Numbered from the stretch's first letter, positions 10,079-64,000 are shown. The stretch is 64,000 nt of DNA from an uncultured Methanosarcinales archaeon (GCA_964402995.1 CAYOEA010000002.1:36558-100557), one strand, 5' to 3'. Notes: generated from the letters alone by a model not told the origin. Numbers and translations: made by a program.

Positions 10079-11113
10079 ATGGGAACAGCAATAACTGAAA
10101 TTCTAATAAAAAAAGAAATTAGTATAAAAGATTTACAAGGACAAATTCTAGCAGTTGATACATTTAACATGCTATACCAATTTATTTCTAGCATAAGACA
10201 ATCAGATGGAACACCATTGACAGATTCTAAAGGCAGAATAACAAGTCACTTAATTGGATTATTTAACAGAGTAACAAAATTAATGACAGAAGGAATAAAA
10301 TTCATCTTTGTATTTGATGGCGAAGTTCCAGACCTGAAGAAAGCAGAAAGAGAAAGAAGAAAATTAGCAAAACTTGAAGCTCAAGCGAAATATGACGCAG
10401 CAAAACAAGAAGAAAATATTGAAGAAATGAAAAAATATGCTTCAAGAACTTCAAAACTAACATCAAACATGGTAGATGAAGCAAAAGAATTGATTAGAGC
10501 ACTTGGAATGCCAATAGTAGATGCACCAAGTGAAGGCGAAGCACAAGCAGCATATATAGTTTCAAAAGGAGAAGCATACGCAATAGTTAGCCAAGATGCA
10601 GACTCGCTTGTTTTTGGAGCACCAATAGTTATTAAAAATTTAACAATTGGCGGAAAGAAAAAAATGCCAGGAAGTTATGTGTATAAAAATATAAGTCCTG
10701 AAACATTAAGTTTAGCTGAGAACTTGAATAATTTGAAAATAACCAATGATCAATTAATAGTGCTTGCAATGCTTGTAGGAACTGATTATAATATTGGCGG
10801 AATAAAAGGAATAGGACCAAAGAAAGCTTTAAAACTACTAGAAACATATAAAGAAGATTATGAGAAAATATTTGAGGAAGCAAAGTGGAATGATAACTTT
10901 GACTTTGAATGGAAATTAGTATATGACACCATAAAAAATGTGAAAATTACTGACGATTATGATTTAACATTTGAAAAGATTGATACAGAAAAAATAATTG
11001 AAATATTAGTAGAAAAACATGACTTTTCAAAAGAAAGAGTTGATGGAACAATTGCAAAATTAATGAAAGGAATGCAACCAAAAACTCAGAAAGGACTTGG
11101 AGATTTCTTTTAA
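10079..11113 (+). CDS. fen: flap endonuclease 1 (FEN-1)
   Basis: N-domain …ILAVDTFNMLYQF… and I-domain …FVFDGEVPDLK…GMPIVDAPSEGEAQAAY…SQDADSLVFG… are classic XPG/FEN1 motifs. An HhH follows: GTDYN…GIGPKKAL. Confidence 0.9.
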   Translation: MGTAITEILIKKEISIKDLQGQILAVDTFNMLYQFISSIRQSDGTPLTDSKGRITSHLIGLFNRVTKLMTEGIKFIFVFDGEVPDLKKAERERRKLAKLEAQAKYDAAKQEENIEEMKKYASRTSKLTSNMVDEAKELIRALGMPIVDAPSEGEAQAAYIVSKGEAYAIVSQDADSLVFGAPIVIKNLTIGGKKKMPGSYVYKNISPETLSLAENLNNLKITNDQLIVLAMLVGTDYNIGGIKGIGPKKALKLLETYKEDYEKIFEEAKWNDNFDFEWKLVYDTIKNVKITDDYDLTFEKIDTEKIIEILVEKHDFSKERVDGTIAKLMKGMQPKTQKGLGDFF

Positions 11114-11235
11114 ATTTAGAAATAAAAAAAGAGGATTAAGATTAATTGGAATAGTATGTTTAGATATTAAGAATACGCTGCTTCTAAAAATATGATGATA
11201 TTAGGCAGAGTATTTATTTTATTATAAATTAGAAA

Positions 11236-12105
11236 ATGAATTGGTTAATGTTTGCAATAGGAGCGGCAATATTCACTGCAGCTGCAGCACTAACTCAAAA
11301 AAAAGTTTTGAATAAAGAACATGCACTTGAATTCTCAACAGTACTTGCAATACTTAATTTTGCAATTGTGTTTGTTTTCTTACCACAAACAAATTTTGAT
11401 ATTGGATGGGATAAATACTTACTAATCTATGGAGTATCATGGTTTGCAGCAATAGCATATTTAATGGTTGCAAAAGCAGCAAGACATAGCGAAATATCAG
11501 CAGTATCACCAATAATGAATTTTGGACCTGCAATAACTGCAAGCATGGCATTCTTAGTTCTTGGAGAAAAGATTTCAGCTTTACAAGTTGCAGGAATAGG
11601 ATTACTCATTTTAGGAATGTATGTTTTAGAAATAAAAAAAGACTTGAAAAACTTCTTAGATCCATTCAAAGAATTTGTAAAATCAAAATATAATCACTTC
11701 ATAATATTCGCATTAATTCTATATGGTTTTACAAGCATAGCAGACAGATATATAATGACGCATGGAGTTGGAGTTGAAACATACCAATTCATAGTGCATG
11801 GTTTTGTACTTATGAATTATTTGCTAATCATAACAATTTTTTATGATGGAATAAAAGGCGTAATTAATGGATTTAAGAGCGCAGGTAAATGGATTCTATT
11901 GGTATCAATATTTACTGTAGCATATAGATATATGCAAGCAAAAGCTGTTTCTATGATGTATGTAGGGCTTGTTTCTGCAATTAAGAGACTATCAAATGTG
12001 GTAATCACTTTAGTTGGTGGAAAAATATATCATGAAAAGAACGTTCTGATAAAAGTCTTAGGGTGTATCATTATGATTTGGGGCGCAGTCTTTATAATAA
12101 TCTAA
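11236..12105 (+). CDS. EamA/DMT-family-like polytopic membrane transporter
   Basis: 289 aa, ~10 predicted TM helices in a two-half arrangement typical of the drug/metabolite transporter fold. No soluble domains. Confidence 0.5.
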   Translation: MNWLMFAIGAAIFTAAAALTQKKVLNKEHALEFSTVLAILNFAIVFVFLPQTNFDIGWDKYLLIYGVSWFAAIAYLMVAKAARHSEISAVSPIMNFGPAITASMAFLVLGEKISALQVAGIGLLILGMYVLEIKKDLKNFLDPFKEFVKSKYNHFIIFALILYGFTSIADRYIMTHGVGVETYQFIVHGFVLMNYLLIITIFYDGIKGVINGFKSAGKWILLVSIFTVAYRYMQAKAVSMMYVGLVSAIKRLSNVVITLVGGKIYHEKNVLIKVLGCIIMIWGAVFIII

Positions 12106-23209: not shown

Positions 23210-24523
23210 TTAGCCAGCTCTTTTTATCCTAACATCTCTTCTTTGACTTTCTGAGTACCCATACCAAAGTTCAATGATTAAAGGAGCTTTGTAAGCTGAT
23301 TTTGCAGTGGCATATTCCATATCATAAGTGCAAGTAAATTGACCTCTACCATTAATCATTCTAATAACATAATTATCAGGCGAACATCTTAATTTGAAAG
23401 GACTACCTGACATACGAATATCACCAATGAAAACTATATCTAAATCTTGAGCACCAAGACGACCAGGATAATAAGGACTACATAACTCTAAATGTAATGG
23501 ATTGATAACTTTACCATCACCAACATTAGCTACATCAATATTGAAAATAACACTTCTAGGTGTGCTTTCTTGACTAACGCCAGTAATTGCAACTGGACCA
23601 CCTTGTGAACGAGACATTTGAACCGAACCTGGAACACAAGCTTTTGCTGTTTCAGAGTATGGATCAGGATCTATGCAAACAATAGGGGCTGCGTAAGTTG
23701 AATAAGCGTAACAAGTTGTGAAAAGGAAAGTTACATCTGTAGAATCAAGTCCTGCAGGCCAAGTTTTAATTTCACTAGGGAAAGATATAACAGTTGATTC
23801 TCCGCCTGGATAATTATAATTATCAGGAGCTAACAAGAAAGACTTACCATTAAATCTATCAAATGAAACCTGATCTAAAATCATTAACAAACCTCTACCA
23901 TGATGAATAAAATTAAGACTGAAACCAGACAAATCCATGTTAAAAGCACCAGTTGACCAATCATAAGCAATATCTAATTCAGGAAGACCTTCACATTCGC
24001 TAGTTGTAAGAATATTACAGAAAGCATCAATTAAATTATCAAGACCAAAACCATCAGTACCAAGATAACCTCCGCCATCGTCGCCAAAAGTACAACCAAT
24101 CAGACCAGATATTGATTCAAAATTAGTGAAAGAAAAACTACTAAAATCAAGTTGACAATGATCAAAAAAACCACCAAGTGTTCTTGGAATATTCATCCCA
24201 TCTACATTAATAAGTGAAGGATCATAACCAGAAACATATAAACCTCCTCGAGTCCAGGAAGCACCAACATTTCTTAATACAACAGATATATCAAAACCAT
24301 TATATTCAGGACCTTGCGCATTACCATAATAATATAATCTTGAAGGAGGAGCACCAGGTTCTACAATCATACGAATACCCTCTGAACCTTGATAATAATT
24401 TTCAGTTTTAGGGTTAGAATTTGGATTTTGTCCACCTATACCACTACAAGAAGAAAGGAGTAAAGATAATATTAAAAGACTAATTATAAATAGTTTCCTC
24501 GACATATACAGTATATCTTGCAC
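23210..24523 (-). CDS. secreted lipobox-containing surface protein, paralog family member 2
   Basis: The ORF opens MQDILYMSRKLFIISLLILSLLLSSC (lipobox-like LLSSC). The real start is probably at the seventh codon (MSRKLF…). Family motifs CYAYSTYAAPIVCIDPD…C and QGGPVAITGVSQE…NIDVANVGDGKVIN. Confidence 0.65.
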   Translation of the reverse strand: MQDILYMSRKLFIISLLILSLLLSSCSGIGGQNPNSNPKTENYYQGSEGIRMIVEPGAPPSRLYYYGNAQGPEYNGFDISVVLRNVGASWTRGGLYVSGYDPSLINVDGMNIPRTLGGFFDHCQLDFSSFSFTNFESISGLIGCTFGDDGGGYLGTDGFGLDNLIDAFCNILTTSECEGLPELDIAYDWSTGAFNMDLSGFSLNFIHHGRGLLMILDQVSFDRFNGKSFLLAPDNYNYPGGESTVISFPSEIKTWPAGLDSTDVTFLFTTCYAYSTYAAPIVCIDPDPYSETAKACVPGSVQMSRSQGGPVAITGVSQESTPRSVIFNIDVANVGDGKVINPLHLELCSPYYPGRLGAQDLDIVFIGDIRMSGSPFKLRCSPDNYVIRMINGRGQFTCTYDMEYATAKSAYKAPLIIELWYGYSESQRRDVRIKRAG

Positions 24524-24636
24524 TATGAATATATAAGTTTTTCTAAGATTTAGTAGTAAAAATGTTAAAAAAAGGCAAAATGCCTAAGTTTTGACAAACA
24601 TAAACTAAACTTGTTGAATAAAAATAATTTAAGAAA

Positions 24637-26598
24637 TTATACATTCTCATAACAATTGTTTGATGTTGAATTAAAAGCACAAGAACGAAATTTACAAGAA
24701 TCATTTGAACAAGAATCTTCATCAGACCCGTAAGAAGAACAAGTAGTTCCACAAACAGTACAAATATCTGAAGAATAGCTCCAATAATGATCCGAAGGAG
24801 GATTAAAGTTACATGGATTATCATCACACTCTTCAAAAGAATAATAATCAATTCCCATACTACAATCCAAACATTTACTATGATCTAAAGACCAAAACCT
24901 TGAACCTGTAAACTCACAAGGATTATCATCACATTCAGACCTACTATAATCGTAAGTAATAACTGGTGGAGAAAGTATTTTTTTAACTTCTGAACAATCA
25001 AAACATTGAGTTTGATCTTTGGACCAATAAGTTTTTGCTTCTACTACCTCACAAGGATCAGTTTCACAAATACCTTCAATAACATAATCTTTTGCCTCAT
25101 CAGTACCAGAACAAGAGTAACATGCACCTTTACCTAAACCAGGATCAAACCAAATACATTCACTTGGAAATCCGCAAGAATCTTTTTCACAAGAATCTTC
25201 ATTATCATAAACCATGCATTTATTTGTATTTTTTTCAGGACAAGCATTACATCTATCTTTACCAGATGTAGTCCAATGACAATCAGAAGTTTTTACACTA
25301 CAAACATTCGCACTACAATCTATTTCTCCATCATAAGAACCGCAATAAGATACTTTGTCACATTTTGAACAACAAACAAAGCTATCAGCACAATAATTAG
25401 TTTCTGTAATGCAATCACTAAAAGAAATTGTTCCAATAGAAGTATCTCCATTAATTAAAGTAGTATTATCAATACAAGACCAATCAGATTCTTTAAAAGC
25501 ATCACCACATTCAAGATAACCTTTTGAGCAAGCTTCACATTTAGACACACAACCATTCCCAACAGGGTATTCATAAGGCTTACAATTTTGAATTTTTGAG
25601 ATATTTCCAAAATAATGACCATCCCAAGTTCTAATAATTTCAACATCTTGAGATAAAATGTTTATATAATTAAAATCGATTTGAACATCTAAATTTGTTA
25701 GGTAATTTAAATTTTGATTGTAACCTTGATTATATTCACAAAGAAGATGTATTTCATTATCCTTAAATCTAAAAGCATAAGGATCATTAGCAGATCTACA
25801 AGTTAATTCTTCCCCACCTAAAGTAGCCTTTATATTAACTGTATCCCAAAGTGCTCTATTTGTTGACTGTGCATAACCACAATCTTGATCAGGAGATACA
25901 ACAGATCCTTTACCAACATTTGATACAGTCATAAAGAAAACAGGTTTAAGATATTGTCCAAAATTTATTAATTCATAATGTAACTCGGTAATTGCAACTG
26001 GTGAGCCTTGACCTGAAGAATAAGTTTTATCTTGAACCTCGCAAGCTTTAGTTCTAATATCGTCAATAGTATAAGTATCAATACAAACTTCATCAGATAG
26101 AACTGTTCTATAAGGATAACAAATAGCAACATAAAGCTCAGTCCCAGGACTTTCTTTTTGTCCCTTAATTGTCTTTGCAGTAAGTCGTGGTAAATAATGG
26201 TAAATTGAGTCACCTTTAGGAAAAATAGGTGATTTTCCTTCAAGAGTTATTTTCTGCCAATCAGCAGCAAGACTGTTTAATGTTTGAATTGATTTTGTTC
26301 CATTAAAATAAAATTCATCAAACTCCCAAGTAATCAAAGCAGGTTTTGATGTATTAATTGAGAATGCACCTTTGTTTGAAATTAAAAGACCAACAGGAAA
26401 CTCAGAATCTTCACGAACTTGATCAGGAGGTGAATTTCTTAAAAATTCAAAAACTAAACCATCTTTTCCTGAATTAAAATTTATATCTTTAACATTTGGA
26501 TCATAATTATTACTGCCAGAGCCATTTTGACCAGCACCACATGCAGTAAGCATAAACATAGAGATAAATAGTATTAATAATAGTGATAGTTTTTTCAT
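24637..26598 (-). CDS. secreted lipobox-containing surface protein, paralog family member 3, with C-terminal tandem Cys-rich modules
   Basis: Signal peptide FMLTAC. Family motifs ICYPYRTVLSDEVCIDTY…C and GQGSPVAITELHYE…MTVSNVGKGSVVS. The C-terminal ~270 aa holds at least 5 repeats of a ~28-aa Cys module (CDDNPCEF…W…C.DCS). Confidence 0.65.
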   Translation of the reverse strand: MKKLSLLLILFISMFMLTACGAGQNGSGSNNYDPNVKDINFNSGKDGLVFEFLRNSPPDQVREDSEFPVGLLISNKGAFSINTSKPALITWEFDEFYFNGTKSIQTLNSLAADWQKITLEGKSPIFPKGDSIYHYLPRLTAKTIKGQKESPGTELYVAICYPYRTVLSDEVCIDTYTIDDIRTKACEVQDKTYSSGQGSPVAITELHYELINFGQYLKPVFFMTVSNVGKGSVVSPDQDCGYAQSTNRALWDTVNIKATLGGEELTCRSANDPYAFRFKDNEIHLLCEYNQGYNQNLNYLTNLDVQIDFNYINILSQDVEIIRTWDGHYFGNISKIQNCKPYEYPVGNGCVSKCEACSKGYLECGDAFKESDWSCIDNTTLINGDTSIGTISFSDCITETNYCADSFVCCSKCDKVSYCGSYDGEIDCSANVCSVKTSDCHWTTSGKDRCNACPEKNTNKCMVYDNEDSCEKDSCGFPSECIWFDPGLGKGACYSCSGTDEAKDYVIEGICETDPCEVVEAKTYWSKDQTQCFDCSEVKKILSPPVITYDYSRSECDDNPCEFTGSRFWSLDHSKCLDCSMGIDYYSFEECDDNPCNFNPPSDHYWSYSSDICTVCGTTCSSYGSDEDSCSNDSCKFRSCAFNSTSNNCYENV

Positions 26599-28532
26599 TA
26601 TCGAACCCTCATTTGAGTGCCTTTCTTTAAAGTATAAGCATAATCAACATTAACAGCAACTGTTACAGTACGTTTATCCATAGTACTTCCAGATAAAAAA
26701 CTATTCAGACCATTCTTTGCAACTAAATCACAAGAAACCGCATCTATTTTATAATCTAACAATCCGCCTGCGCCAAGAAAAGCAACTCCAAATGAATAAG
26801 TGTTTTCAATTGGATCGTGATAAATTGGATCATAAGTACAATTAATTAGTTCAGTATCTGAAGGAACAGTAACAGTTAATGAACGAATATAATTTAATTT
26901 TCCTTGAGGCCAAACATTCTCTAATTGAACGGTAAATAAATGAATAAAATTATTCTCATCATCTAAATCAGTAGGCATGTCTAAACCAATAGGTAGATTT
27001 TTCTTAGATAAACGAATAGCTATCGGACCATCAGAAGAACTTGCTTCTGCAACACGAGTTTTCAAATCTAAAAAATTGTAAATATCTTTTCCTTTCTTAC
27101 CAATAACCACGTTATCAGTGTATACATAGGCAACTGTTGATGTTTGAGTAAAGAAAAATGAAATCTCAAAAAACATATTATGATACCCTGGTTTTATAGT
27201 ACCATTTCCAAATCTACATCTTAACTCATCAGATCCTTCATAAATAATAGTTGACTTTGCAGGACTAACCATGCCAAAAATTTTAAGTTTATCTTTTTCA
27301 ATATAACAAGAATGATAAGTTTGAACCGCTCCTTCAAAACTCTTTGCACTAATATCAGCCAAAACATCTATTTTTTTATTAGCATATAATGTCTCAGATA
27401 AAATACGAACATTAGTTAAATAAATACCTGGTTGTTCACCTTCATTATTTTCAGTTGTAGAACCATATGGATCATAAGCAATAGTATCATTAATTTTATT
27501 TTTAAAATTTTTAAATCCTGAATTAATTGAATCAGCTACTTGCTTTGCATTGCCCCAAACAAAATCTTTAGCGACATACAAACCACTCATAGTATCTGAG
27601 CCTTCAACATTAATATTAGGTGAAACATCACTTGCAAAAGCATCAGATGTTAATAATTGAATACATAAAAGTAATATAAATAATTTGAGAATTCCAGTGC
27701 CCCATTTATGAATCTTAGAATCAGGTTCAGAAGTATAAACTAAATACCAAGGCCAAACTGGAAAGAATATTAAGAGGCTAATTAAAGTTGTATTTCCTTT
27801 AGCAAAATAAGTCACTAATGGAGGAACAGCCAAAGCTGCTAACGATACAAAAATTATTGTCCAGGTTGTAGAAGATAAACCTGATTTGTAAATAAAAGTT
27901 ACTGCAACAAAAGTCAAACCTAAATATAAAAGAATAATAGGAATAATTGAAGATGGATTTCGACCAAAATTAAATATAAAAGCATCTGCTGCATGTAAAA
28001 GTAAAGTTAAGAGTAAAAAAAAACCAATATTAGAAGTTGTACCAGATGATTCTCCAGATGACTTGACTGAATTAGCAGCACCTTTTGCCAAACCTTTAGC
28101 TTTTGAACCTAAAAATTTAGTAAGAGCAAAAGCTCCACCACCAACAATAGCCCCTACTTTTAGGGCTTTACCTAAACCTTTCTTTACTTTATCAGATTTA
28201 GATGAACCAGATGAACTAGGGGAATCAGATGAACCAGAACCGCTGCTTGTTTTAATATTACTTAAATCAATACCTGAAATGATTGATTCATAAGAAGATT
28301 TATCTGCACCTGCAGCTTCAAGTTCTGAAAGGATATTTTTTATTTCGGTTTTATCTTTATTTGCATTCTCTGCATACAATTTCGCCATGCTAGAATCTTC
28401 TTTTCTTTGGGAAGAAATATACTTTTCTTCATTATATTGTAAACTACTAACTGCTGGATATAAATCATTAATTAACTTAGAATGGTCTGCATTACTAGAA
28501 GTGTTCTCACCACCTTCTTGATCTTCGGACAT
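26598..28532 (-). CDS. polytopic membrane protein with cytoplasmic S/G-rich N-terminus and extracellular C-terminal domain related to the paralog family
   Basis: ~170-aa low-complexity N-terminus, ≥4 TM helices (aa ~170-290). The C-terminal domain contains DGPIAIRLSKKNL…FTVQLENVWPQGKL, comparable to the GGPxxI…N.G.GK motif. Confidence 0.55.
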   Translation of the reverse strand: MSEDQEGGENTSSNADHSKLINDLYPAVSSLQYNEEKYISSQRKEDSSMAKLYAENANKDKTEIKNILSELEAAGADKSSYESIISGIDLSNIKTSSGSGSSDSPSSSGSSKSDKVKKGLGKALKVGAIVGGGAFALTKFLGSKAKGLAKGAANSVKSSGESSGTTSNIGFFLLLTLLLHAADAFIFNFGRNPSSIIPIILLYLGLTFVAVTFIYKSGLSSTTWTIIFVSLAALAVPPLVTYFAKGNTTLISLLIFFPVWPWYLVYTSEPDSKIHKWGTGILKLFILLLCIQLLTSDAFASDVSPNINVEGSDTMSGLYVAKDFVWGNAKQVADSINSGFKNFKNKINDTIAYDPYGSTTENNEGEQPGIYLTNVRILSETLYANKKIDVLADISAKSFEGAVQTYHSCYIEKDKLKIFGMVSPAKSTIIYEGSDELRCRFGNGTIKPGYHNMFFEISFFFTQTSTVAYVYTDNVVIGKKGKDIYNFLDLKTRVAEASSSDGPIAIRLSKKNLPIGLDMPTDLDDENNFIHLFTVQLENVWPQGKLNYIRSLTVTVPSDTELINCTYDPIYHDPIENTYSFGVAFLGAGGLLDYKIDAVSCDLVAKNGLNSFLSGSTMDKRTVTVAVNVDYAYTLKKGTQMRVR

Positions 28533-51973: not shown

Positions 51974-53584
51974 CTATTTGTCTTGACTTATATTCTTTTT
52001 TGTGTCAGACGCCACTTTAATTTGCTTTTTTGAATCTTTTTTCGCTTTAGCGTTTTTAGATTTTACAACTTTTTTATTCTTTGCAGCATCTTTAGATTTA
52101 AATATAGTATACATTAAAGGATTTTTCACTCTACGACAAAATTCATCAGGTGTACAAACCCTCATATCTTTGTAATAAGCCTTATTATCGCAATTAGGTG
52201 GTGGAGGTACTTTTTTATTTTTATTTAGTTCTTTATACCTTAATTGACCATTTATGTAGACTTGGCGTAATTCCTCAACATTTAGTTTATTCCATTCATC
52301 AAGACGTGTTCTGATTTCAGCCATATTCCAACCTACATTAAGTAAAAAGTTAGATAATACAAATATAGCTCTTTTTTTACCATCTTCAATACCTTTTAGT
52401 ATATTCTTTATACATGGAGGAAATAATTCTTCAGAAATAGCCTCGGAAATCTCATCATACTCTTTTTGCTCTCTTTCTTTTTTGAAATTGTGCTCTTCTT
52501 CTACTTCAACATTAAAATCATACGCTTGAAGAACTAAAGTGTCTGTTTGATTTTTAGGAGCATCTTTATCTAAGAATTTTGATAAAATTTTGACATTATC
52601 TGGCTTTGCACTCTCTTTATTAAAAGTTAGAATATCACTTAAAGGAATAGGAACAGATACTAATTGCGATTTTTCATGAAATGAAAAAGGCATTCTGAAT
52701 AAATGCCGAGATGAAATAAGAAGAGTATCTAATTCAATTATAGCAAATGGGTTAAATTGAGAAATATAATCTTTTTTAGGATTTACCTTACTAGGGCTAC
52801 AATTACAAAGAGACTTTAATATTTTTTTCTCTATTATTTTAGAACATTTAGGACAAACAAGATAATTTTTTTCTTCAGTTGATTTAATAGAATAGCCACA
52901 CACACAATCAAAACTTGCAATATGAACTTTATCTGCTTTAATTCTAACTTTACAATTCTTACAAGATGTTTGAACTAATTCCTCTTTTTTATCAGGAAAT
53001 AGTTCATGTAATTTAGATAATGATATTTCATAACCATCAAATGAAATAATATCTCCTTTTACTTCAATGAATTTTCTGATATAATCTAAAAGATACTTTG
53101 CAATACGCATGGGAGCTTCAGGAAATAATTTTTTTGTATCTTTACCACCTATTTTGTCAGGGAATGCTTCAAAAGGAACTGCTATGTGAAAACCTTTGTT
53201 TCCAGAGAACTTTGCAGAAATAGATACTATATTGTGTGCTTGTAAAGCTTTAACAACTAAATGAGCTGTTAATTTAGAAAAATCCCAATTAGGACAATCA
53301 ATGTCTAAAACTAAATCCCAACCTTTTCTTAGTTCATCAAGATCAATTGGTTTAAGATTTGTGCCTAATTGAAGAGGGTTATACCATCTTTCTTCAGAAC
53401 AATGAAAAGAAGTTGTGCCTCTTTTTGCATGAGCAAGAATATCGCTGTTATAATTCAAAGTATCAGGACGTTTACCAAAACGATCATTATAACGAACTGC
53501 AACCTCTCTATCTTCAGCTACACGAAGTATTTCATTCTGAATATCTTCTCGCTTATAGAATTTTAAAGTTGTACTTATGAACAT
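51974..53584 (-). CDS. priS: archaeo-eukaryotic primase catalytic subunit (PriS-like) with Zn-knuckle and a C-terminal 4-Cys extension (possible PriS-PriL(CTD) fusion)
   Basis: AEP motifs DLVLDIDCP (DxD) and SGNKGFHIAVPF (SGxRGxH). Zinc module CKNCKV…CVCGYS…CPKCS. The C-terminal ~150 aa holds four Cys (PPCIKN…PNCDNK…RVCTPDEFC), compatible with an Fe-S PriL-CTD/PriCT-like domain. Confidence 0.65.
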   Translation of the reverse strand: MFISTTLKFYKREDIQNEILRVAEDREVAVRYNDRFGKRPDTLNYNSDILAHAKRGTTSFHCSEERWYNPLQLGTNLKPIDLDELRKGWDLVLDIDCPNWDFSKLTAHLVVKALQAHNIVSISAKFSGNKGFHIAVPFEAFPDKIGGKDTKKLFPEAPMRIAKYLLDYIRKFIEVKGDIISFDGYEISLSKLHELFPDKKEELVQTSCKNCKVRIKADKVHIASFDCVCGYSIKSTEEKNYLVCPKCSKIIEKKILKSLCNCSPSKVNPKKDYISQFNPFAIIELDTLLISSRHLFRMPFSFHEKSQLVSVPIPLSDILTFNKESAKPDNVKILSKFLDKDAPKNQTDTLVLQAYDFNVEVEEEHNFKKEREQKEYDEISEAISEELFPPCIKNILKGIEDGKKRAIFVLSNFLLNVGWNMAEIRTRLDEWNKLNVEELRQVYINGQLRYKELNKNKKVPPPPNCDNKAYYKDMRVCTPDEFCRRVKNPLMYTIFKSKDAAKNKKVVKSKNAKAKKDSKKQIKVASDTKKNISQDK

Positions 53585-53927: not shown

Positions 53928-56141
53928 TTAAATATATTTTGAGTCTATAACTTCTCTTATCTTTTTAGATTTTTTATTACCAACTAAATCAACAGTTGTT
54001 AGATCTAATTCAGAAGCGGATAAAATTTTAGAAGGCGAACCAAATTTTTCCAAAAGAGGTTTTGCTAAAGTTGTTCCAATACCTGGTAAAGAACTAATAA
54101 AATATTCTTGTTGTTCTTTAAGAGATAAAGGTTTAGAAGAATGCATTTGAAATTCTTTTTTATCAAGATTTAATTCCCTTTTTGCAAGAAGTTTAATGTA
54201 CTCTGCAGAATCAATAGGATTTTTAGTGAAAATTATAGGTATCTTAAAAGCAGTTGTCAAAGTTGAAATCATACCTCTAATCGCATTTTGATTGATGTTT
54301 CTTTGCGAATAAATATCTTCATCACCTTCAATCATAATTATTGGTTTTAAGAATTGAGTTAAATCTTTTGCTTGGTGTAATATTCTACCATCAATAATTG
54401 AATCAACAAAATCTTTTTTAGTTTTGAATTCAATAACCACATCATCGGAAATTCTATAATCTCCAACAGATAAAGATTTTAAATCTAAAATAACATTATC
54501 ATCAGAAAGACGTTTCATAACACGAGACCCTTTTTCTCTATAATCAACAACAACTTTAAGTTCTGGTTCATTATTTTTAGCATAAGAATCTAAATTTGAA
54601 TTCTTTTCTTTATTAGCATTAACAACTAAATTAGAAAATTTATTTTTTAATTTAATTAAATTAGCGTGCATTTTCTTTTCTTTATGAAAAGCAGACCATC
54701 TATAAGCCTCATCACGTGTTTTTCTAGTCATTAAAATGAAAACTTTTCCCTTTTCCAACCTACCTGTTCTTCCTCTTCTTTGAATGGTTCTAATAGCAGA
54801 GGGTACAGGCTCATAAAAAATAACTAAATCGACTTGAGGAATATCAAGACCTTCTTCACCAACTGAAGTGCTTATTAAACAATTAAAATCACCATTCGAA
54901 AATTCATCAATAATTTGTTTTTGTTCTTTTTGAGAAAGTCCTTTACCGTCAGATTTTCCTTGACCTATAAACATTTTTGAAGAAATATTTTGTTTTTCAA
55001 GTAAAGATTGAATAGTAGACGAACCACTTCTATATTGGGTGAAAATAATTATTTTGACATTTGGATTCTTAGTTTTTTCGTTTACAACAATATCTTCTAA
55101 AGCTTTAATTTTAGGATGAATTATACCTTTAGAAATCATGGTTTCAACTTTCATTTTAGCTAAAGTGAATTCAGTATCAGAAACAAGATTTTTTACAGCT
55201 TTAACTGTTGTAGTTTTTGCTTGATCTTCAAGCTTTTCTAAATATTTTTGAAGAGGTTCTAAGCCTTGAGATTCCAATAATTCAAGACCATGTTGGATTT
55301 TCATAATCTCAGCAAGAAGACTTATAGATTTTAATATTTCAAAAGATTTTTCACCTGAAGAAATGAGACCTCTGAGTTCTGCTTGGATTGTAAGAAGAGC
55401 AGTTTTAGTAAGACTAGAATAATCGCCTGAAAAATAACCTAAATCCTTTACTTCACGAACCTTTCGTTTTATAGCAGTCTCAAGATGAACTTTTACTTCT
55501 CCAAAATTTTCAGGAAAATCAACTTCAAACCATTTAACTTCGACATCTTGAACATGAGGTTTAATATCAGGATCAGTTTCAGTTCTAATTTCTATGTTTT
55601 GAACGAATAAATTCGTACAAACTTCTTCAACTTTAGACATCTCAGAACCAGGAGATGCTGTCAAAGCTAAGATTCTAGAATGATCAGCTTTCTTCTCATA
55701 TTGTTTTGCAACAAATACATACGCATAGTCTTTTACTGCTCTATGTGCTTCATCAACAACCAATAAACTTACTTTATTTAAAGATAATCTATTAGAAAGA
55801 ATATCATTTTCCAATCCTTGGGGAGTTGAAATGATAATTTTTGCTTTTTCAAATAATTCAACACGTTTTTCAGGTTTTACAAAACCAGTAAATAATACTA
55901 TTTCTTCTTCTTTCAGATTAAAATGTTTTTTGAAGGTTTTAAGATGCTGTTCTACAAGAGGTCTTGTAGGAGCTAAAATAAGAATTTTTGAATTAGAATA
56001 AAGAGATAATCTGTGTGCTGCGAGGAGAAGTGCAATTACAGTTTTTCCAAGACCTGTTGGTAAAACAACCAAAGTATTATCTTTAGAAGCAGATTTAAAG
56101 ATTGATTCTTGATATGATCTTGGTTTAAAGTCTTTTATCAT
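53928..56141 (-). CDS. hef: Hef helicase-nuclease (FANCM/XPF-like: SF2 helicase + ERCC4 nuclease + HhH2)
   Basis: Walker A VLPTGLGKT, DEAH VVDEAH. ERCC4 motif VVVDYREKGSRV. C-terminal HhH LPGIGTTLAKPLLEKFGS. Confidence 0.85.
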   Translation of the reverse strand: MIKDFKPRSYQESIFKSASKDNTLVVLPTGLGKTVIALLLAAHRLSLYSNSKILILAPTRPLVEQHLKTFKKHFNLKEEEIVLFTGFVKPEKRVELFEKAKIIISTPQGLENDILSNRLSLNKVSLLVVDEAHRAVKDYAYVFVAKQYEKKADHSRILALTASPGSEMSKVEEVCTNLFVQNIEIRTETDPDIKPHVQDVEVKWFEVDFPENFGEVKVHLETAIKRKVREVKDLGYFSGDYSSLTKTALLTIQAELRGLISSGEKSFEILKSISLLAEIMKIQHGLELLESQGLEPLQKYLEKLEDQAKTTTVKAVKNLVSDTEFTLAKMKVETMISKGIIHPKIKALEDIVVNEKTKNPNVKIIIFTQYRSGSSTIQSLLEKQNISSKMFIGQGKSDGKGLSQKEQKQIIDEFSNGDFNCLISTSVGEEGLDIPQVDLVIFYEPVPSAIRTIQRRGRTGRLEKGKVFILMTRKTRDEAYRWSAFHKEKKMHANLIKLKNKFSNLVVNANKEKNSNLDSYAKNNEPELKVVVDYREKGSRVMKRLSDDNVILDLKSLSVGDYRISDDVVIEFKTKKDFVDSIIDGRILHQAKDLTQFLKPIIMIEGDEDIYSQRNINQNAIRGMISTLTTAFKIPIIFTKNPIDSAEYIKLLAKRELNLDKKEFQMHSSKPLSLKEQQEYFISSLPGIGTTLAKPLLEKFGSPSKILSASELDLTTVDLVGNKKSKKIREVIDSKYI

Positions 56142-57278: not shown

Positions 57279-58072
57279 AAATTTCCATCAATTATTCTTG
57301 AGAAAAAGAAAAAGATGATCGCTCCTAAAACAGCTGCCAATAATAAAAGCCAAAAACTGTTTAAAATTGTTATTAAGAAATAAATTAATCCTATATAACA
57401 TATTAATGAAGCAAAAATAAAAACATATAATTGTCTTGAAAAGAAAAATATTGTAAATCCTGGAGTTGAACCATCACCTAATTTCATACCTGAAATTGTT
57501 GGAATTGGAAGCATAGAAAAAAATGCGAACAATAAATTTAATTTTACAAATAATAATAAAAGGTATGAAGGAAATTGTAAATAAATTAATCCTACAAGCA
57601 TTGCAACACCAATATTTCCTACAACACCCCAAATAGATAAAGTTGAAATTTCTCTCATATTAGTACCATATCTAAAATGACCTAAACGTAATTTCTTATC
57701 ATGTTTATAATATACTGAATTTGGAAATAAGAAAGGAATAAAACCAAATGAAATAAAGGATAATAATAAACCAATTAACACACCAGGAAGCCACCAATGA
57801 AATTTCATAGTATAACCTCTATCTATCGCAGCCATTTTTTGAAGAGTAAATTGAATTAGCATTGCAGAAATAATTATTATTGTAGAAAAAAACCAATTGG
57901 TAAAACCTAATATCGCATTAAATGTATCTCCACCCCACATTCTAAAAGATAAAATGAAACCAAAAATAATTGCTGTTAAAAAAAGTTGCCTTTGTTCACT
58001 AACACTATATTTGAAGTAAACTTTAGAATGTGCAATTAGGTTGTTAAACATAATGTGAAGATTACAAAACAC
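57275..58072 (-). CDS. polytopic membrane protein (unassigned)
   Basis: 265 aa, ≥7 hydrophobic helices. No HExxH or other catalytic motif noticed. Confidence 0.4.
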   Translation of the reverse strand: MFCNLHIMFNNLIAHSKVYFKYSVSEQRQLFLTAIIFGFILSFRMWGGDTFNAILGFTNWFFSTIIIISAMLIQFTLQKMAAIDRGYTMKFHWWLPGVLIGLLLSFISFGFIPFLFPNSVYYKHDKKLRLGHFRYGTNMREISTLSIWGVVGNIGVAMLVGLIYLQFPSYLLLLFVKLNLLFAFFSMLPIPTISGMKLGDGSTPGFTIFFFSRQLYVFIFASLICYIGLIYFLITILNSFWLLLLAAVLGAIIFFFFSRIIDGNF

Positions 58073-58087
58073 AATTTAAATAATTTA

Positions 58088-58798
58088 TTATTTTAAAGAA
58101 AGATTAGATTGTTCTAATTTCTTGAAATATTTTTTCATACCAGCCTCATGACCAGCACCAATTATAACCATTATTTTTTTATCAGGATTTTTATTTATTA
58201 AATGAAATAATTTTTTAGCCATAAATTTATCTCTATCATCAATTAAAGCAGAATAAAGACCAGGATATGAATCTTTAACTTGAGTTATTAAAGTTGAAAT
58301 TAAATCTTGAGAAGGTATTTTGTTTAAATCAAACTTGATTTTAGGTCCTTTTTTAAATACTAAACCCATAAATAAATCTTTGAATAATCTTAATTTTTCT
58401 TTAAACGAAAATTTTCTAGAAAAATTTCTAAGAGTAATTTGAATATCTTGATCTATTAAAGCAAGTAATTTATCATTTGTTTTAGCAAGTTTAATTCCTT
58501 GAATCATATCAGATCCAGGCTCCATACCAACAATTGAACCTAATTTCTTTTGAATAAATCTACCAATTATAAGAAAAAAGAAACCAGTAACACCAATTTT
58601 TGGAATTAAAGATAAAGACATGGATGATTTTTGTTTAGAATTTTGTTTGTTTTGATTAGAAAATATGCTGTGAAAACGTTTAACATCGAGTTCAACTGCT
58701 ATTATATCAGGATTAAATTCTTTAAATGTAGTATTAATTTTAGAAACTGATAACTTAGAAATGTGAGATGTTCCTATTATCTTTAAATTTGGGTTCAT
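58088..58798 (-). CDS. TraB/GumN-family protein
   Basis: …IIGTSHISKLSVSKINTTFKEFNPDIIAVELD… and …VIIGAGHEAGM… match TraB/PrgY-family motifs. Confidence 0.6.
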   Translation of the reverse strand: MNPNLKIIGTSHISKLSVSKINTTFKEFNPDIIAVELDVKRFHSIFSNQNKQNSKQKSSMSLSLIPKIGVTGFFFLIIGRFIQKKLGSIVGMEPGSDMIQGIKLAKTNDKLLALIDQDIQITLRNFSRKFSFKEKLRLFKDLFMGLVFKKGPKIKFDLNKIPSQDLISTLITQVKDSYPGLYSALIDDRDKFMAKKLFHLINKNPDKKIMVIIGAGHEAGMKKYFKKLEQSNLSLK

Positions 58799-58828
58799 AA
58801 TAAAAGTAAAATGAATTTATTTAAAAAA

Positions 58829-59662
58829 TTAGTTTTTAAGATTTAGATTCTTAGTAGCTAAACCAAAAAGACTTGAAAGTGTTTCACTAAAGAACTCTGT
58901 ATTTGCCCAAATACCAACATCATAATTCGGATGAACAGTATTATCGTCCATTAACATAAACATTACTTGTTTATCATCAATAATACAAAATCTTCCTTTA
59001 CCTGTATAATCAATCACTTTAGCAAATTTTTCCATGTTTTTAAGTAAATCTTTAGTTTTAGAAGTTAAAGCAGTTGCAATTTTTATTGAAACTCCTCTTT
59101 TATTTGCTTTTTCAAATGATTTTGAAAGTAAAGATAATTTTCTTAAGGCACCTTCTTCAGATGTAACAAGTAAAACTGATTTTTCTGCACTTTTAATCAT
59201 CATATCTAAATGTGAATAAAGTCTATCTCTGCCTTTTAATGATGCAGTAATTTCAGCAGGATCAACAAGTGATACTCCTTCTGTATGAAGTGTATTTAAT
59301 TCAGTTAATAAATCTGATTCTTTAAGTTTATTAAGACTAGATAATTGAGATGTAGTATCATCTTGGATTTTTTTCTTAACTCTTTCCAAGACTTCTTCTG
59401 GAGGAACTGCTAAGTATTTTATAGGTTTTCCAATTTTCATTATGATAAAACCTTTTTTTTCAAGGCTTTCTAGAACGTCATAACTTCTACTTCTTGGAAC
59501 ATTTGCAATATCACTTAATTCACCTGCAGTACTTACACCTCGTGAAAGTAAAGCGGTCCAAATTTTAGCTTCATAAGTATTCAAACCAAAATCTTTGATT
59601 TTTTTTAAAAATTCATTTTGAACGAGCATCTTTAGTTTATCTCCTTTAACCGAAGTTATCAT
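58829..59662 (-). CDS. TrmB-family transcriptional regulator (paralog 2)
   Basis: wHTH …AKIWTALLSRGVSTAGELSDIANVPRSRSYDVLESLEKKGFIIMKIGKPIKYLAV… is nearly identical to paralog 1. The coding DNA of this segment is also closely similar between the two genes. Confidence 0.7.
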   Translation of the reverse strand: MITSVKGDKLKMLVQNEFLKKIKDFGLNTYEAKIWTALLSRGVSTAGELSDIANVPRSRSYDVLESLEKKGFIIMKIGKPIKYLAVPPEEVLERVKKKIQDDTTSQLSSLNKLKESDLLTELNTLHTEGVSLVDPAEITASLKGRDRLYSHLDMMIKSAEKSVLLVTSEEGALRKLSLLSKSFEKANKRGVSIKIATALTSKTKDLLKNMEKFAKVIDYTGKGRFCIIDDKQVMFMLMDDNTVHPNYDVGIWANTEFFSETLSSLFGLATKNLNLKN

Positions 59663-59790
59663 TTTGGTAAGATGCTTGTTTTTATAAACCTTATGTTTTT
59701 TTTGTTATTGTTCAGTAGTTAATTTTAATATAATTTATTATTTTTAAAAGAAAAAATCATCTTAAAAATAATTATTTGTCGTCGATAGAT

Positions 59791-59820
59791 AGGGTGTGAC
59801 CCCTTGATTTCCACTGGAAG
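59791..59820 (-). promoter_or_regulatory. origin recognition box (ORB1, full-length)
   Basis: Minus strand reads cTTCCAGTGGAAAtcaaGGGGtcacaccct. That is the mini-ORB core TTCCAGTGGAAA plus a downstream G-string, matching the archaeal ORB consensus. Confidence 0.65.
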
Positions 59821-59940
59821 ATTATTTTAAGAGAAAATGGGTGTTTGTATTTTTATGTTTAATATAATTTTTAGTATAAAGTTTATGTTTTTAGTATAAA
59901 GTTGATCATAAAATTTTGTTAATAAAATAAATCATATATC

Positions 59941-59970
59941 CCTCTCACCCCTTGATTTCCTTAACTGAGT
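59941..59970 (-). promoter_or_regulatory. degenerate origin recognition box (ORB2)
   Basis: Minus strand reads ctcagttaaGGAAATCAAGGGGTgagaggg. It shares GGAAATCAAGGGGT with ORB1, in the same orientation, 150 bp away. Confidence 0.45.
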
Positions 59971-60629
59971 AGAATTAATTATTTGAACTTTGTATATTTT
60001 TAAGTTTAGTTTTTTTATTTTAATTATTGTTCTATATTATTTTTTGTTCTTATCATTTGTTATTTATTAAAATTTAGAAAATATCTTTTCTCCTCTTAAT
60101 TATTTTTTAATTTTGATTCTTTTCACTTTTTTCTCCTTTAACCTCATTTAACTTCATTTAATTTTATTTAACTTAAATTATACATTTCATTCAAGTTTTC
60201 TTCTTGTTCATGATTATTTTGTTTAATATTTTTATTTTCTTCTTATTTTATTTTTATTTATGTTTCTTCACCATTTTCTTCTTTCTAAAACAATTCTTTT
60301 CCTTTTTTCTTTCTCTTCTTATTTCTCTTTTTCACATTTTTATTTTATTAATATTTATTTTCTTCTTCTTTCTTATTATTTTATTTATCTTTATTTATCA
60401 TTATTTATTCTCTTCTTCTTTTTTCTTTATTATTATTATATAATATATATATATATATTATTTCTATATAGAAAATATATATATAATATATATAATGAAA
60501 AAAAGTTGAATAAAAATATATGTTGGAAAATATAGTTTGAAAACACATAATTAATTTGTCGAGAATAAAATGAAGAAAAAAGGAATAAAAAAATAAAAAT
60601 AAACAAACAACTTGAATTTTATTGAACAT

Positions 60630-60656
60630 ATCTCCAAGAGAAATGAGGGTGTGTGT
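60630..60656 (+). promoter_or_regulatory. possible inverted degenerate ORB on the cdc6-proximal side of the DUE
   Basis: Plus strand tCTCCAaGaGAAATgAgGGtGTG matches ORB1 at ~13/19 positions in the opposite orientation. Confidence 0.3.
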
Positions 60657-60726
60657 GTAGTATATGATTAATAATATATTTAGTGGTGACATAAGATTTA
60701 TAAACCTATGTTTCATTTGGAGATAA

Positions 60727-61959
60727 ATGTCAAAAAATAAATTAGGAAAATTCTTTGAAACATACCTTGAGAAAGATTCATTATTCTTAGATAAAGGCGC
60801 ATTACAAGCTTCATACATGCCAGGAGAAATTCAACATAGAGATGATCAAATTGAACAAATTGCAGGAATTTTAGCTCCAGTATTGAAATTAGATGTACCT
60901 TCAAATTTATTTATTTATGGGAAGACAGGAACTGGTAAAACTTTAACAGTAAAATATATTTCAGATCAAATGTTAAGTTTAGCAAAAGAAAAAAAATTAC
61001 CTGTAGAAATATTATATTTAAATTGTAAATTAAAAAAAATTGCAGATACAGAATACAGGTTAATTGCAGAACTTGCAAGACATTTTGGAAAGGCAATACC
61101 TGCAACAGGACTTCCAACAGATGAAGTATACAACATATTCTATAAAGCAGTAGATGAAAAAAAAAGAAATATTATTATTGTTTTAGATGAAATAGATGAA
61201 TTAATTCGAAAAACAGGAAATGATTTAATATATAATTTAACAAGAATAAATACTTCACTTGTAAATTCAAAAGTTTCTCTAATTGGAATAAGTAATGTGT
61301 TGACATTTGTGAATGTATTAGATCCAAGAGTGAAATCTTCTTTAAGTGAAGAAGAAATAGTATTTCCACCATATAATGCAATACAAATTCAAAATATATT
61401 ACGTTCAAGAGTTGAAAATGCGTTTGTAGAAAATGTAGTTGAATCAGGAGTTGTTGAAAAATGTGCTGCTTATGCTGCAAGAGATCATGGTGATGCACGA
61501 AGAGCGCTTGAACTAATGAGAGTTGCAGGAGAACTTGCTGAAAGAAAGAATCAAAAAACTGTGATGATAGAAAATATTGATGATGCAGAAGATAAAATCG
61601 AAAAAGACAGAGTATTAGAAATAATCAAAAGTCAACCTAAACAATTTCAAATAACATTATATGCTATTATGAAACATAAACCTAAAAATTCTAAAGATAA
61701 AATTTTCACAGGAGATATTTATGATAAGTATAAAGATATATGTTCAAGAGTTGGACTTAGACCTTTAACTCAAAGAAGAGTATCTGATATAATTGCAGAA
61801 TTTGATATGCTTGGAATAATAAATTGTAGAGTATTATCAAAAGGAAGATATGGTAGAACAAGAGAAATAACACCATCAATACCTGAAAGTATGGAAATAA
61901 AAGCTTTAGAAATACTTGAAGAAGATTTGGAAATTAAAGGAAAAAATGAGTTATTCTGA
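60727..61959 (+). CDS. cdc6: Orc1/Cdc6 origin-binding initiator
   Basis: Walker A GKTGTGKT, Walker B IIVLDEIDEL, sensor regions and a C-terminal winged helix (…RVGLRPLTQRRVSDIIAEFDMLGII…). Confidence 0.9.
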   Translation: MSKNKLGKFFETYLEKDSLFLDKGALQASYMPGEIQHRDDQIEQIAGILAPVLKLDVPSNLFIYGKTGTGKTLTVKYISDQMLSLAKEKKLPVEILYLNCKLKKIADTEYRLIAELARHFGKAIPATGLPTDEVYNIFYKAVDEKKRNIIIVLDEIDELIRKTGNDLIYNLTRINTSLVNSKVSLIGISNVLTFVNVLDPRVKSSLSEEEIVFPPYNAIQIQNILRSRVENAFVENVVESGVVEKCAAYAARDHGDARRALELMRVAGELAERKNQKTVMIENIDDAEDKIEKDRVLEIIKSQPKQFQITLYAIMKHKPKNSKDKIFTGDIYDKYKDICSRVGLRPLTQRRVSDIIAEFDMLGIINCRVLSKGRYGRTREITPSIPESMEIKALEILEEDLEIKGKNELF

Positions 61960-63529
61960 AAAAATAGCTGCATTACTTGAGCAAGGAATTTTACCTGATG
62001 AAAAATTGCTTAAGGAAGCAGAAGAAGAAATGAATAAAACCACTTCTAATGAAGTGCAAACTTCAAACAATAAGGTAGATTTATCTACAACCCAAAATGA
62101 ATCTGAATCTAAAGAAACTGAAGCAAACAATAGTAAAAGTGTTGATACGACAGAATCAAATGATTCTGAAGCTCAGAAAGAAAATTTTTCTGAAGCGCCA
62201 GAACCTGAAGGTCATGTTTCAGGAAAAGTTAAAATAGTGTATAACTATGATAAAAAGCCAAAAAAAAGAACATATGCTGACTTTGTAAAATATTTTAATA
62301 ATAGATTTAAATCGTTAGAAAAACTGATTAAATTAAGACCTGAATTACAAGGTTTAATGTCAATAAATAAATTAAAATTTAAATCAGATAATGAACAAGT
62401 TTCAATAATTGGAATGATTAAATCAAAAGCTGAAACTAAGAATGGACACATAATATTAACTGTTGAAGATTTAACAGGAGAAGTAAATGTTTTGATAAGT
62501 AAAAATAATGATGAATTATTACCTATTGGAAAAGATTTAGTGTTAGATGAAGTGGTTGGATTTGCTGGTTCTGCAGGAAATAATATAATTTTTGCAAGAG
62601 ATTTAGTTTTTCCAGATGTTCCTTTAAGTAAAGAATTAAAAAAAGCTCCTGAAGAAGTTTATGCAGTGTTTATTAGTGATTTACATTTTGGTTCTAAAGA
62701 ATTTTTACAAGGTGATTTTGAAAAATTTATTTCTTGGATGCAAGGATCATTAGGCTCTGAAGAACAAAAAAACATTATTAAAAAAACCAAATATTTATTT
62801 TTAGCAGGAGATTTAGTTGAAGGAGTTGGAGTTTATCCAGGTCAAGAAAATGATTTAATTTTAACTGATATAAAAGATCAATATAAAGAATTAGTTAAAT
62901 ATCTTAAAAAAATTCCTAATCATATAAAAATAATTATCAGTCCTGGAAATCATGATGCAGGAAGAATTGCAGAACCACAAGCAGCATTATGTAATGATTT
63001 TACTGAGTCTTTATCTGAATTAGATAATGCGATTTTAGTAAGTAATCCAGCAACATTAAATATTGAAAGTTCTAAAATTTTTTCAGGTTTAGATGTGTTA
63101 GTATATCATGGTTATTCTTTAATTTATTATGCAGATAATGTTCCAACTTTAAGAAATGCGGGCGGTCAAAAAAGAGTTGATTTAATTATGAAATTTCTTT
63201 TACAAAAAAGACATTTAGCACCAACTCATGAAGCTATAATGTATGTTCCAGATGATGAAGAAGATCCTTTAGTAATAAATAAAATTCCTGATATTTTTGT
63301 AACAGGACATATACATAGAGCAATGGCTTCTCAATACAGAAATATTTCATTGTTAAACACTTCTTGTTGGGGTGACATAACTGAAGATCAAGAGAAACGT
63401 GGATTAGAACCTCAACCTGCAAGAGCTTTAGCTTTAAATTTACAAACAAGAAAAGTAAAAATAGTTAATTTTTATTCAAGAAACATTGAACGAAAAGATG
63501 ATTTAGAAGAGGAAAAATTAGATGGTTAG
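61916..63529 (+). CDS. polD1: DNA polymerase II (PolD) small subunit DP1
   Basis: OB-fold region, then calcineurin-like phosphoesterase motifs (…FISDLHFGS…, …LAGDLVEG…, …PGNHDAG…, …GHIH…). The start may be the Met at 61946 (MSYSEK…). Confidence 0.85.
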   Translation: MKKIWKLKEKMSYSEKIAALLEQGILPDEKLLKEAEEEMNKTTSNEVQTSNNKVDLSTTQNESESKETEANNSKSVDTTESNDSEAQKENFSEAPEPEGHVSGKVKIVYNYDKKPKKRTYADFVKYFNNRFKSLEKLIKLRPELQGLMSINKLKFKSDNEQVSIIGMIKSKAETKNGHIILTVEDLTGEVNVLISKNNDELLPIGKDLVLDEVVGFAGSAGNNIIFARDLVFPDVPLSKELKKAPEEVYAVFISDLHFGSKEFLQGDFEKFISWMQGSLGSEEQKNIIKKTKYLFLAGDLVEGVGVYPGQENDLILTDIKDQYKELVKYLKKIPNHIKIIISPGNHDAGRIAEPQAALCNDFTESLSELDNAILVSNPATLNIESSKIFSGLDVLVYHGYSLIYYADNVPTLRNAGGQKRVDLIMKFLLQKRHLAPTHEAIMYVPDDEEDPLVINKIPDIFVTGHIHRAMASQYRNISLLNTSCWGDITEDQEKRGLEPQPARALALNLQTRKVKIVNFYSRNIERKDDLEEEKLDG

Positions 63530-64000
63530 TTGTTCAAAAGACATGCAAAAATATTTTGACAGTCTAAAAAATGGTTGTATGAAAGAGTTTAAAGTAGCTA
63601 CTGAAGCCAGGAAAAAAAATTATGATCCACAACCTTTTGTAGAAACAACTCTTGCTGCAACAATGGCTGAAAGAGTTATTGGTCTTATTAGTGTTGTAGC
63701 TCCTCAAATAAAAAATACTGGCGCAGAAGCTAGAATTGAAGAACTAGAAAATAAATATGGGGTTTTAGATATACGAGTTGCAATGTATATAGCTGAAGAT
63801 GTAGCAAAACAAAAATTCTGTAAATTCAAAGATGAAAAAGAAGCAATAGAAGTTGGAATAAGAACAGGATTTACATATGTAACATTAGGTGTTGTAAGTA
63901 GTCCATTAGAAGGATTCACACATCTTGATTTTAAAGATAGAAATGATGGTCAAGGAAAATATATGTGTATTTATTATTCTGGTCCAATAAGAAATGCTGG
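63522..64000 (+). CDS. polD2: DNA polymerase II (PolD) large subunit DP2, N-terminal fragment (runs off window)
   Basis: The ATG at 63522 overlaps the DP1 stop. Translation MVSCSKDMQKYFDSLKNGCMKEFKVATEARKKNYDPQPFVETTLAATMAERVIGL…GIRTGFTYVTLGVVSSPLEGFTHL… matches the DP2 N-terminus. It is not in the ORF track because there is no stop inside the window. Confidence 0.75.
   Translation, partial: MVSCSKDMQKYFDSLKNGCMKEFKVATEARKKNYDPQPFVETTLAATMAERVIGLISVVAPQIKNTGAEARIEELENKYGVLDIRVAMYIAEDVAKQKFCKFKDEKEAIEVGIRTGFTYVTLGVVSSPLEGFTHLDFKDRNDGQGKYMCIYYSGPIRNA

Follow-up and report, generated by a model that had tools for sequence, protein, structure and literature searches.

The window analysed here is a stretch of 64,000 nucleotides (GC content ~30%) from an uncultured archaeon deposited under Methanosarcinales (GCA_964402995.1, CAYOEA010000002.1:36558-100557), and it contains a non-coding gap of 1064 bp (59663-60726) that very probably acts as a chromosomal replication origin (oriC). 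The gap separates two divergent transcription units. On its left, a minus-strand gene (58829-59662) encodes a TrmB-family regulator (PF01978 TrmB, E = 2.9e-20) and forms the boundary of the origin region; the best NCBIfam match of this protein is TrmBL2, with a score far under the cut-off. TrmBL2 is a chromatin protein in Thermococcus. A TrmB-like homologue is also found upstream of cdc6 in 14 of 80 species-representative DPANN loci, which serve throughout as our set of relatives, and in 13 of these the two genes diverge. On the right of the gap, the plus strand carries an operon of orc1/cdc6 (60727-61959) followed by the genes for the small subunit DP1 (61946-63529, 527 aa) and the large subunit DP2 (63522-64000) of DNA polymerase D (PolD). 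DP1 matches PF04042, Metallophos and an OB fold, and scores 431 bits against the NCBIfam DP1 equivalogs, slightly below the cut-off of 445. DP2 is represented by its N-terminus (PF03833, E = 1.1e-28) before the gene exits the window, and the complete gene (1172 aa) is present on contigs L081 and L085, which are identical to the window. The first-pass annotation had described cdc6, DP1 and the start of DP2 as joined by overlapping start and stop codons, and the overlaps are indeed 14 and 8 nt. There is no Rfam match to a non-coding RNA in the gap, even with E-values up to 1, and the whole window yields no Rfam family and no tRNA gene.

The protein encoded beside the gap (410 aa) contains the Pfam domains Cdc6_C, Cdc6_lid and AAA and passes the NCBIfam ORC1 equivalog NF001625 (508.8 bits, cut-off 501). 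Its sequence assigns it to the Orc1-1 class of initiators. The strongest matches are to two Orc1-1-class proteins whose structures were determined on ORB DNA, Sulfolobus (Saccharolobus) solfataricus Orc1-1 (PDB 2QBY_A, 331.6 bits, E = 7.5e-98) and Aeropyrum pernix ORC1 (2V1U_A, 308.2 bits, E = 9.7e-91), whereas other paralogues match more weakly (Orc1-3, 152.3 bits; the Orc1-2-type proteins 1FNN and 1W5S, 76.9 and 53.8 bits). Conserved features are the DNA-contacting recognition helix of the winged-helix domain (TQRRVSDII), its wing (GRYG(K/R)T) and, in the initiator-specific motif, TGL. Database homologues of this Cdc6 place the source among the DPANN archaea, in the Woesearchaeota/Pacearchaeota/Nanoarchaeota group; the closest homologue, at 79% identity, comes from a genome bin named 'Nanoarchaeota archaeon'.

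Origin recognition boxes (ORBs) are composed of a dyad (TTCCA..GGAAA) together with a G-rich motif that is asymmetric (bioRxiv 10.64898/2026.08.15.744077). We scanned both strands of the 64 kb with two matrices, the first built exclusively from ORB-like sequences that precede cdc6 in related genomes, with the window excluded, and the second iterated on 127 sites from the relatives; chance expectation was taken from 200 composition-preserving shuffles of the window. The consensus ORB of the clade is TTCCAnnnGAAATnnnGGTGT (TTCCA-N3-GAAAT-N3-GGTGT). With either matrix the best three matches in the window are the sites that we term ORB1, ORB3 and ORB4. ORB1 (TTCCAGTGGAAATCAAGGGGTCACACCC, minus strand, 59792-59819) is a full box with 33.0 bits in matrix 1 and 30.7 bits in matrix 2. 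It coincides with the minus-strand ORB that had been proposed at 59791-59820, where the minus strand reads cTTCCAGTGGAAATCAAGGGGTcacaccct. Its 21-mer TTCCAGTGGAAATCAAGGGGT occurs once in the window, against 0.01 occurrences expected, and its first 13 nt are identical to ORB1 of Pyrococcus furiosus (PMC1904270). ORB3 (CTCCAAGAGAAATGAGGGTGTGTGTGTA, plus strand, 60632-60659) is a second full box, inverted relative to ORB1, with 22.0 bits in matrix 1 and 28.2 bits in matrix 2. The first-pass annotation had placed a weaker inverted match at about 60630-60656; the position and orientation stand, but the site is not weak and is a near-perfect fit to the clade consensus. ORB4 (CTCCAAATGAAACATAGGTTTATAAATC, minus strand, 60695-60722; 13.4 and 17.6 bits), which overlaps the TATA box and start region of cdc6, had been missed. 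Three matches reach at least 17 bits, compared with 0.035 expected, and all of them are confined to the gap, which answers the refuting condition named earlier, a lack of enrichment of ORB-like motifs here. Two reach at least 28 bits, a score attained in none of the 200 shuffles.

A further site, ORB2 (minus strand, 59940-59967; 9.7 bits in matrix 2), corresponds to the degenerate second copy suspected at about 59941-59970. It possesses the 14-mer GGAAATCAAGGGGT and a G-rich tail, without the TTCCA arm. Exactly two copies of this 14-mer are found, at 59799-59812 in ORB1 and 59947-59960 in ORB2, both on the minus strand. Taken alone ORB2 is marginal, because 0.61 matches of at least 9.5 bits are expected per shuffled window. 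For the same reason a weak ORB-like match of 10.0 bits (CTCCAGAAGAAGTCTTGGAAAGAGTTAA, 59376-59403, minus strand) within the TrmB-like coding sequence is probably due to chance. Between ORB1 and ORB2 lies a tandem repeat with a 20-bp period (59868-59906, plus strand; TTTTTAGTATAAAGTTKAT), present as two copies at 59868-59886 and 59888-59906, the first of which starts 49 nt inside ORB1. The repeat had been recorded as a 16-bp direct repeat; it is real and its positions were correct, but the unit is longer, at 19 nt, with 18 of 19 positions identical. In the closest relative (L001, 2844-2895) GTTTAATTATA is present four times, the series starting 48 nt inward of the distal ORB. The repeat may represent an accessory element whose position is conserved.

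The DNA between ORB2 and ORB3 (59968-60631) is an AT-rich spacer and a candidate duplex unwinding element (DUE), as had been suggested from its (AT)n/(TA)n runs. GC content across 59971-60625 is between 0.05 and 0.18, and the spacer contains the minimum of nearest-neighbour duplex stability for the whole window, at 60421-60520 (-0.882 compared with a mean of -1.191 and a standard deviation of 0.063 kcal/mol per step). The minimum remains in the same region at scales of 100, 300 and 600 bp. ORB1 on the minus strand and ORB3 on the plus strand are inverted around it, such that their dyad ends face inward and their G-rich ends outward. Three segments can be distinguished in the spacer. A pyrimidine-rich low-complexity tract (60080-60436, plus strand) comprises 357 nt with 6 G residues and 79% pyrimidine, the lowest purine fraction of the window. 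It is followed by a (TA)n-like run (60437-60499), which is 95% A+T, is reported by Tandem Repeats Finder with period 2 and 31 copies, and forms the core of the least stable duplex. Between this run and ORB3 the plus strand is AT-rich and, by composition, purine-rich (60500-60625, 69% purine). The switch from pyrimidine to purine falls at about 60465, in the (TA)n run, and was matched by none of 500 shuffles. Traces of local duplication are visible in the pyrimidine tract, where one unit of 50 nt recurs 1.9 times (60339-60437) and another sequence, of 56 nt, is paired (60213 and 60336); the spacer appears to have grown in this way. Two plus-strand open reading frames (ORFs) in the spacer (60204-60443 and 60260-60535) were dismissed as low-complexity artefacts of the tract. 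We also looked for cryptic ORBs that might shorten the effective DUE, and rejected this idea since none in the spacer scores 0 or above.

The sequence recurs under other sample accessions. Contig L085, from another sample accession, is 100% identical to the window over 57727-64000 and spans the whole gap. Five further contigs (L081-L084 and L088, from five other sample accessions) are also 100% identical and begin at 60197/60198, 60311 or 60483. Six identical contigs do not support a misassembly, although the source of the window itself may be among those samples. These five contigs, which carry an identical cdc6, break inside the spacer (60197-60483), and among the 80 species-representative contigs 18 (within L008-L077) reach less than 600 bp beyond cdc6 on its upstream side; an origin spacer at this position explains such frequent assembly breaks.

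The arrangement of ORBs is conserved across the relatives, whose Cdc6 proteins range from 53 to 79% identity. Among the 135 ORB matches of at least 14 bits in these loci, 131 lie within 750 bp upstream of cdc6, and beyond the 1-kb upstream zone 5 matches of at least 17 bits were observed in 1.07 million positions. Orientation depends on position: plus-strand sites occur at -50 to -270 and minus-strand sites at -250 to -500 relative to cdc6. ORB3, 95 nt upstream of cdc6, occupies the modal position of plus-strand ORBs in the 80 relatives and is retained in the alignment with L001 and L002. In this alignment the part of the gap from ORB3 to the ATG aligns well, and the remainder is not alignable. 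A third class, on the minus strand in the -50 to -1 bin, comprises 16 matches of at least 12 bits in 13 of the 80 loci (those listed are at -2 to -39). These ORBs are fused to a TATA-like box and are found mainly among the closest 41 loci; ORB4 belongs to the same class. Gene order is equally stable, with cdc6 followed by DP1 in 73 of the 80 loci and by DP2 wherever the contig is long enough, while the other seven contigs end first. Conservation of ORB position, orientation and linkage to cdc6 at this level of Cdc6 divergence argues for selection on the elements.

The exact 21-mer TTCCAGTGGAAATCAAGGGGT was also encountered in 95 metagenome stretches (L089-L183) of 28-62% GC, often followed by a G-run. 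A detectable cdc6 homologue is present in 26 of the 95; many of the 95 loci are short pieces of their contigs, and several recurrent flank families of the 21-mer have no cdc6 nearby.

A shared 15-mer (CATAAGRTTTATAAA), with one mismatch between its copies, stands 18-22 nt before the ATG of each divergent gene and is oriented with that gene. On the cdc6 side, CATAAGATTTATAAA (60690-60704, plus strand) can be read as a putative B recognition element (BRE) and TATA promoter, with the TATA box at 60697-60704, 22 nt upstream of the ATG. At this distance the mRNA would be leaderless or have a short leader. The 15-mer on the cdc6 side comes close to a palindrome (CATAAGATTTATAAACCTATG), and ATTTATAAACCT is invariant in L001 and L002. 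On the TrmB side, CATAAGGTTTATAAA on the minus strand (59681-59695), 18 nt upstream of the ATG, is a putative BRE/TATA promoter, and its function is likewise predicted from the sequence.

Considered together, these features make it very likely that the gap is a chromosomal replication origin of the Orc1-1/ORB type (oriC1 type, with an ORB(-)/DUE/ORB(+) layout) located upstream of the orc1/cdc6-polD operon. Apart from a nucleotide-skew inflection, for which the gene-strand blocks mask any signal (see below), every sequence feature of an oriC1-type origin that we looked for was found, namely an Orc1-1 gene, ORBs with a dyad and a G-rich element, an inverted pair flanking a DUE at the stability minimum, clustering with statistical specificity for the gap, and conservation of the geometry across 80 species. 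The earlier proposal of a chromosomal oriC is supported by the class of the initiator, the specificity and geometry of the ORBs, the conserved layout and the housekeeping genes on the flanks.

How Orc1 would bind, load MCM, melt the DNA, regulate its own expression and fire the origin we infer by modelling the locus on Sulfolobus. In S. islandicus each ORB binds one Orc1-1 monomer with defined polarity, and the inverted ORB2 and ORB3 steer MCM hexamers, in open form, to the DUE such that the N-terminal tiers face each other (PMC12141716). By analogy, the Orc1 encoded next to the gap would bind as monomers of fixed polarity, at ORB1 (and perhaps the partial ORB2) on one side and at ORB3 on the other, with its winged-helix domain on the TTCCA-N3-GAAAT dyad and the initiator-specific motif of its AAA+ domain on the GG(G/T)GT element. 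ORB1, possibly with ORB2, and ORB3 would then form an inverted loading pair with dyad ends inward, from which ATP-bound Orc1 would recruit MCM hexamers to the AT-rich DNA between them. Melting would most likely begin at the (TA)n run, at about 60437-60520, and replication would be bidirectional. Orc1 bound to ORB4, over the TATA box and start of cdc6, would most likely repress its own operon.

Several observations weigh against this interpretation. The distance between ORB1 and ORB3 is 812 bp, compared with 97-475 bp (median 231) in the 34 relatives with a clear pair, so that it exceeds all of them, and the entire ORB3-DUE-ORB2 region of S. islandicus, at about 130 bp, is roughly a sixth as long (PMC12141716); the GC content of the spacer (0.16) is similar to that of the relatives. 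This length raises the question of how two MCM hexamers would come together after loading at opposite ends of the spacer. In addition, ORB2 amounts to no more than a half-site. Cumulative GC skew reaches a local minimum at 59-61 kb, but this provides no independent evidence and was rejected as such, because the skew follows gene orientation. Its sign changes at each gene-strand block (13, 17, 22, 29, 37 and 60 kb), the blocks running plus to 13.9 kb, minus to 17.0, plus to 22.2, minus to 29.7, plus to 36.6, minus to 59.7 and then plus. Finally, an intact origin sequence is no proof of use, because PMC5663688 and PMC11005403 describe Cdc6 and oriC as dispensable in some Euryarchaeota.

The unusual spacer could reflect the evolution, in this lineage, of an unwinding region that is greatly expanded and distinct in function, which we regard as unlikely; if true, it would represent a variant origin design and not a neutral low-complexity expansion. 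The G-depleted, T/C-rich left half and A/G-rich right half imply that the pyrimidine-rich strand of each half would be the track of an outward-moving 3'-to-5' MCM. Through such asymmetry, MCM could be biased in the strand it selects, or Orc1 in its binding to T-rich single strands (cf. PMC8287685); chromatin proteins could also be kept out. The idea that the strand switch is a design conserved among DPANN origins was considered and rejected, since 12 of 32 decisive relatives have the same polarity and 20 the opposite, with 2 ties, and a half-split version of the test gave 9 of 34 relatives. As the polarity is not conserved, we treat it as lineage-specific and unexplained.

It is very unlikely that the locus is a genuine origin in form that is now dormant or dispensable, with replication initiated by recombination or from another origin as in some Thermococcales and haloarchaea. 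Origin- and Cdc6-independent replication is documented for Thermococcus kodakarensis and T. barophilus (PMC5663688 and PMC11005403). Against dormancy here, the ORBs are strongly conserved in position, orientation and linkage to cdc6 across the 80 species. Moreover, high ploidy is not known from small DPANN genomes.

The ORBs might alternatively act mainly as operators, with Orc1 serving as a transcription factor at the two divergent promoters (TrmB-like and cdc6-polD) while replication starts elsewhere or by other means. ORB4 overlaps the TATA box and start region of cdc6 and belongs to a class kept in the nearest relatives, both promoters carry CATAAGRTTTATAAA, and regulatory paralogues such as Orc1-2 are known (PMC9738581). 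However, the protein encoded here is of the Orc1-1 and not the Orc1-2 class (compare the scores for 2QBY_A with those for 1FNN and 1W5S given above), and ORB1 and ORB3 lie at least 130 and at least 95 nt from the promoters, flanking the least stable DNA of the window. The inverted-pair geometry seen across 80 species is that of origins, and regulation through ORB4 is compatible with origin function. We therefore consider a mainly regulatory role highly improbable.

That the locus is a secondary origin, or that of an integrated plasmid or virus-like element, is scarcely credible: additional origins linked to cdc6 and acquired from extrachromosomal elements can occur on archaeal chromosomes (PMC4010727) and our view covers 64 kb of the genome, yet the initiator is operonic with the essential DP1 and DP2 in an order kept in 73 of the 80 loci, the flanks encode PheRS, SecY, primase, Hef, MCM and TBP, the window is free of tRNA genes, and no integrase was noted among the part of the ORFs scanned.

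The Orc1-1/ORB origin favoured here shares features with several known systems. It resembles oriC1 of Sulfolobus (Saccharolobus) in the adjacent initiator gene, in the inverted ORBs around an AT-rich unwinding region and in having an extra ORB beyond the core pair. Its initiator protein, whose nearest match is S. solfataricus Orc1-1, has the same recognition helix, and the core of ORB4 resembles the S. solfataricus mini-ORB TTTCAGATGAAAC (PMC3089459). It differs from Sulfolobus oriC1 in the length of the spacer, in the G-rich element, which here is short (GGGGT/GGTGT) and 3 nt from the dyad, and in the downstream genes, which encode PolD. Origins of Sulfolobales and Desulfurococcales contain within the DUE an 11-bp motif, ucm, that is bound by the nucleoid protein UBP, and the 19-nt repeat described above is only a positional analogue of it. 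The order oriC-cdc6-dp1-dp2 on one strand, with inverted ORBs and AT-rich DNA directly upstream of the sole cdc6 nearby, is like that of Pyrococcus and the Thermococcales. Pyrococcus has the oriC-cdc6-dp1 arrangement, and P. furiosus ORB1 contains the 13-nt core TTCCAGTGGAAAT that is shared by the ORB core here (PMC1904270). In Pyrococcus the G-string lies 9 nt from the dyad (GAAACTCTGGGGGG). The multiple 13-bp mini-ORBs are absent here. A second ORB cluster inside dp1, as in Thermococcales, was sought and rejected: the matrix scan of cdc6 and dp1 (60727-63600) returned no ORB scoring 0 or above, and no mini-ORB of at least 10 bits in dp1.

[quoted passage not shown] It differs from them in its exceptionally long, strand-asymmetric spacer and in the presence of a TATA-fused ORB. 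Since this layout is already used for bulk prediction of oriCs, the locus adds a member to a known origin type, and the understanding of archaeal replication initiation is unchanged. What it does provide is the placement of a canonical Orc1-1/ORB origin with Pyrococcus-like oriC-cdc6-polD order in uncultivated DPANN archaea, together with a clade ORB consensus and a three-site layout (distal minus, proximal plus and promoter-fused minus). It also gives a practical landmark by which DPANN genome bins can be oriented and growth rates estimated from read depth.

Chromosomal housekeeping genes elsewhere in the window include those for PheRS, SecY, a fused primase and Hef. Four ORFs remained without a Pfam match at E-values up to 1e-5, one of 1966 aa (2314-8214, plus strand) and three consecutive ones of 437, 653 and 644 aa (23210-28532, minus strand). 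PriS and PriL appear to be fused in one ORF of 536 aa (51974-53584, minus strand; PF01896 and PF04104), approximately 7 kb from the origin. A protein resembling Hef, which combines DEAD/Helicase_C helicase domains with an ERCC4 nuclease domain, is encoded at 53928-56141 (minus strand), approximately 4.6 kb from the origin. Outside the window, contig L081, which is identical to it, carries at 9225-11762 a gene for MCM helicase (minus strand, 673 aa) and one with a TBP domain, corresponding to approximately 8.5-10.5 kb downstream of the cdc6 start. The Hef-like gene, cdc6, PolD, primase and the downstream MCM gene thus form a loose cluster of replication and repair genes.

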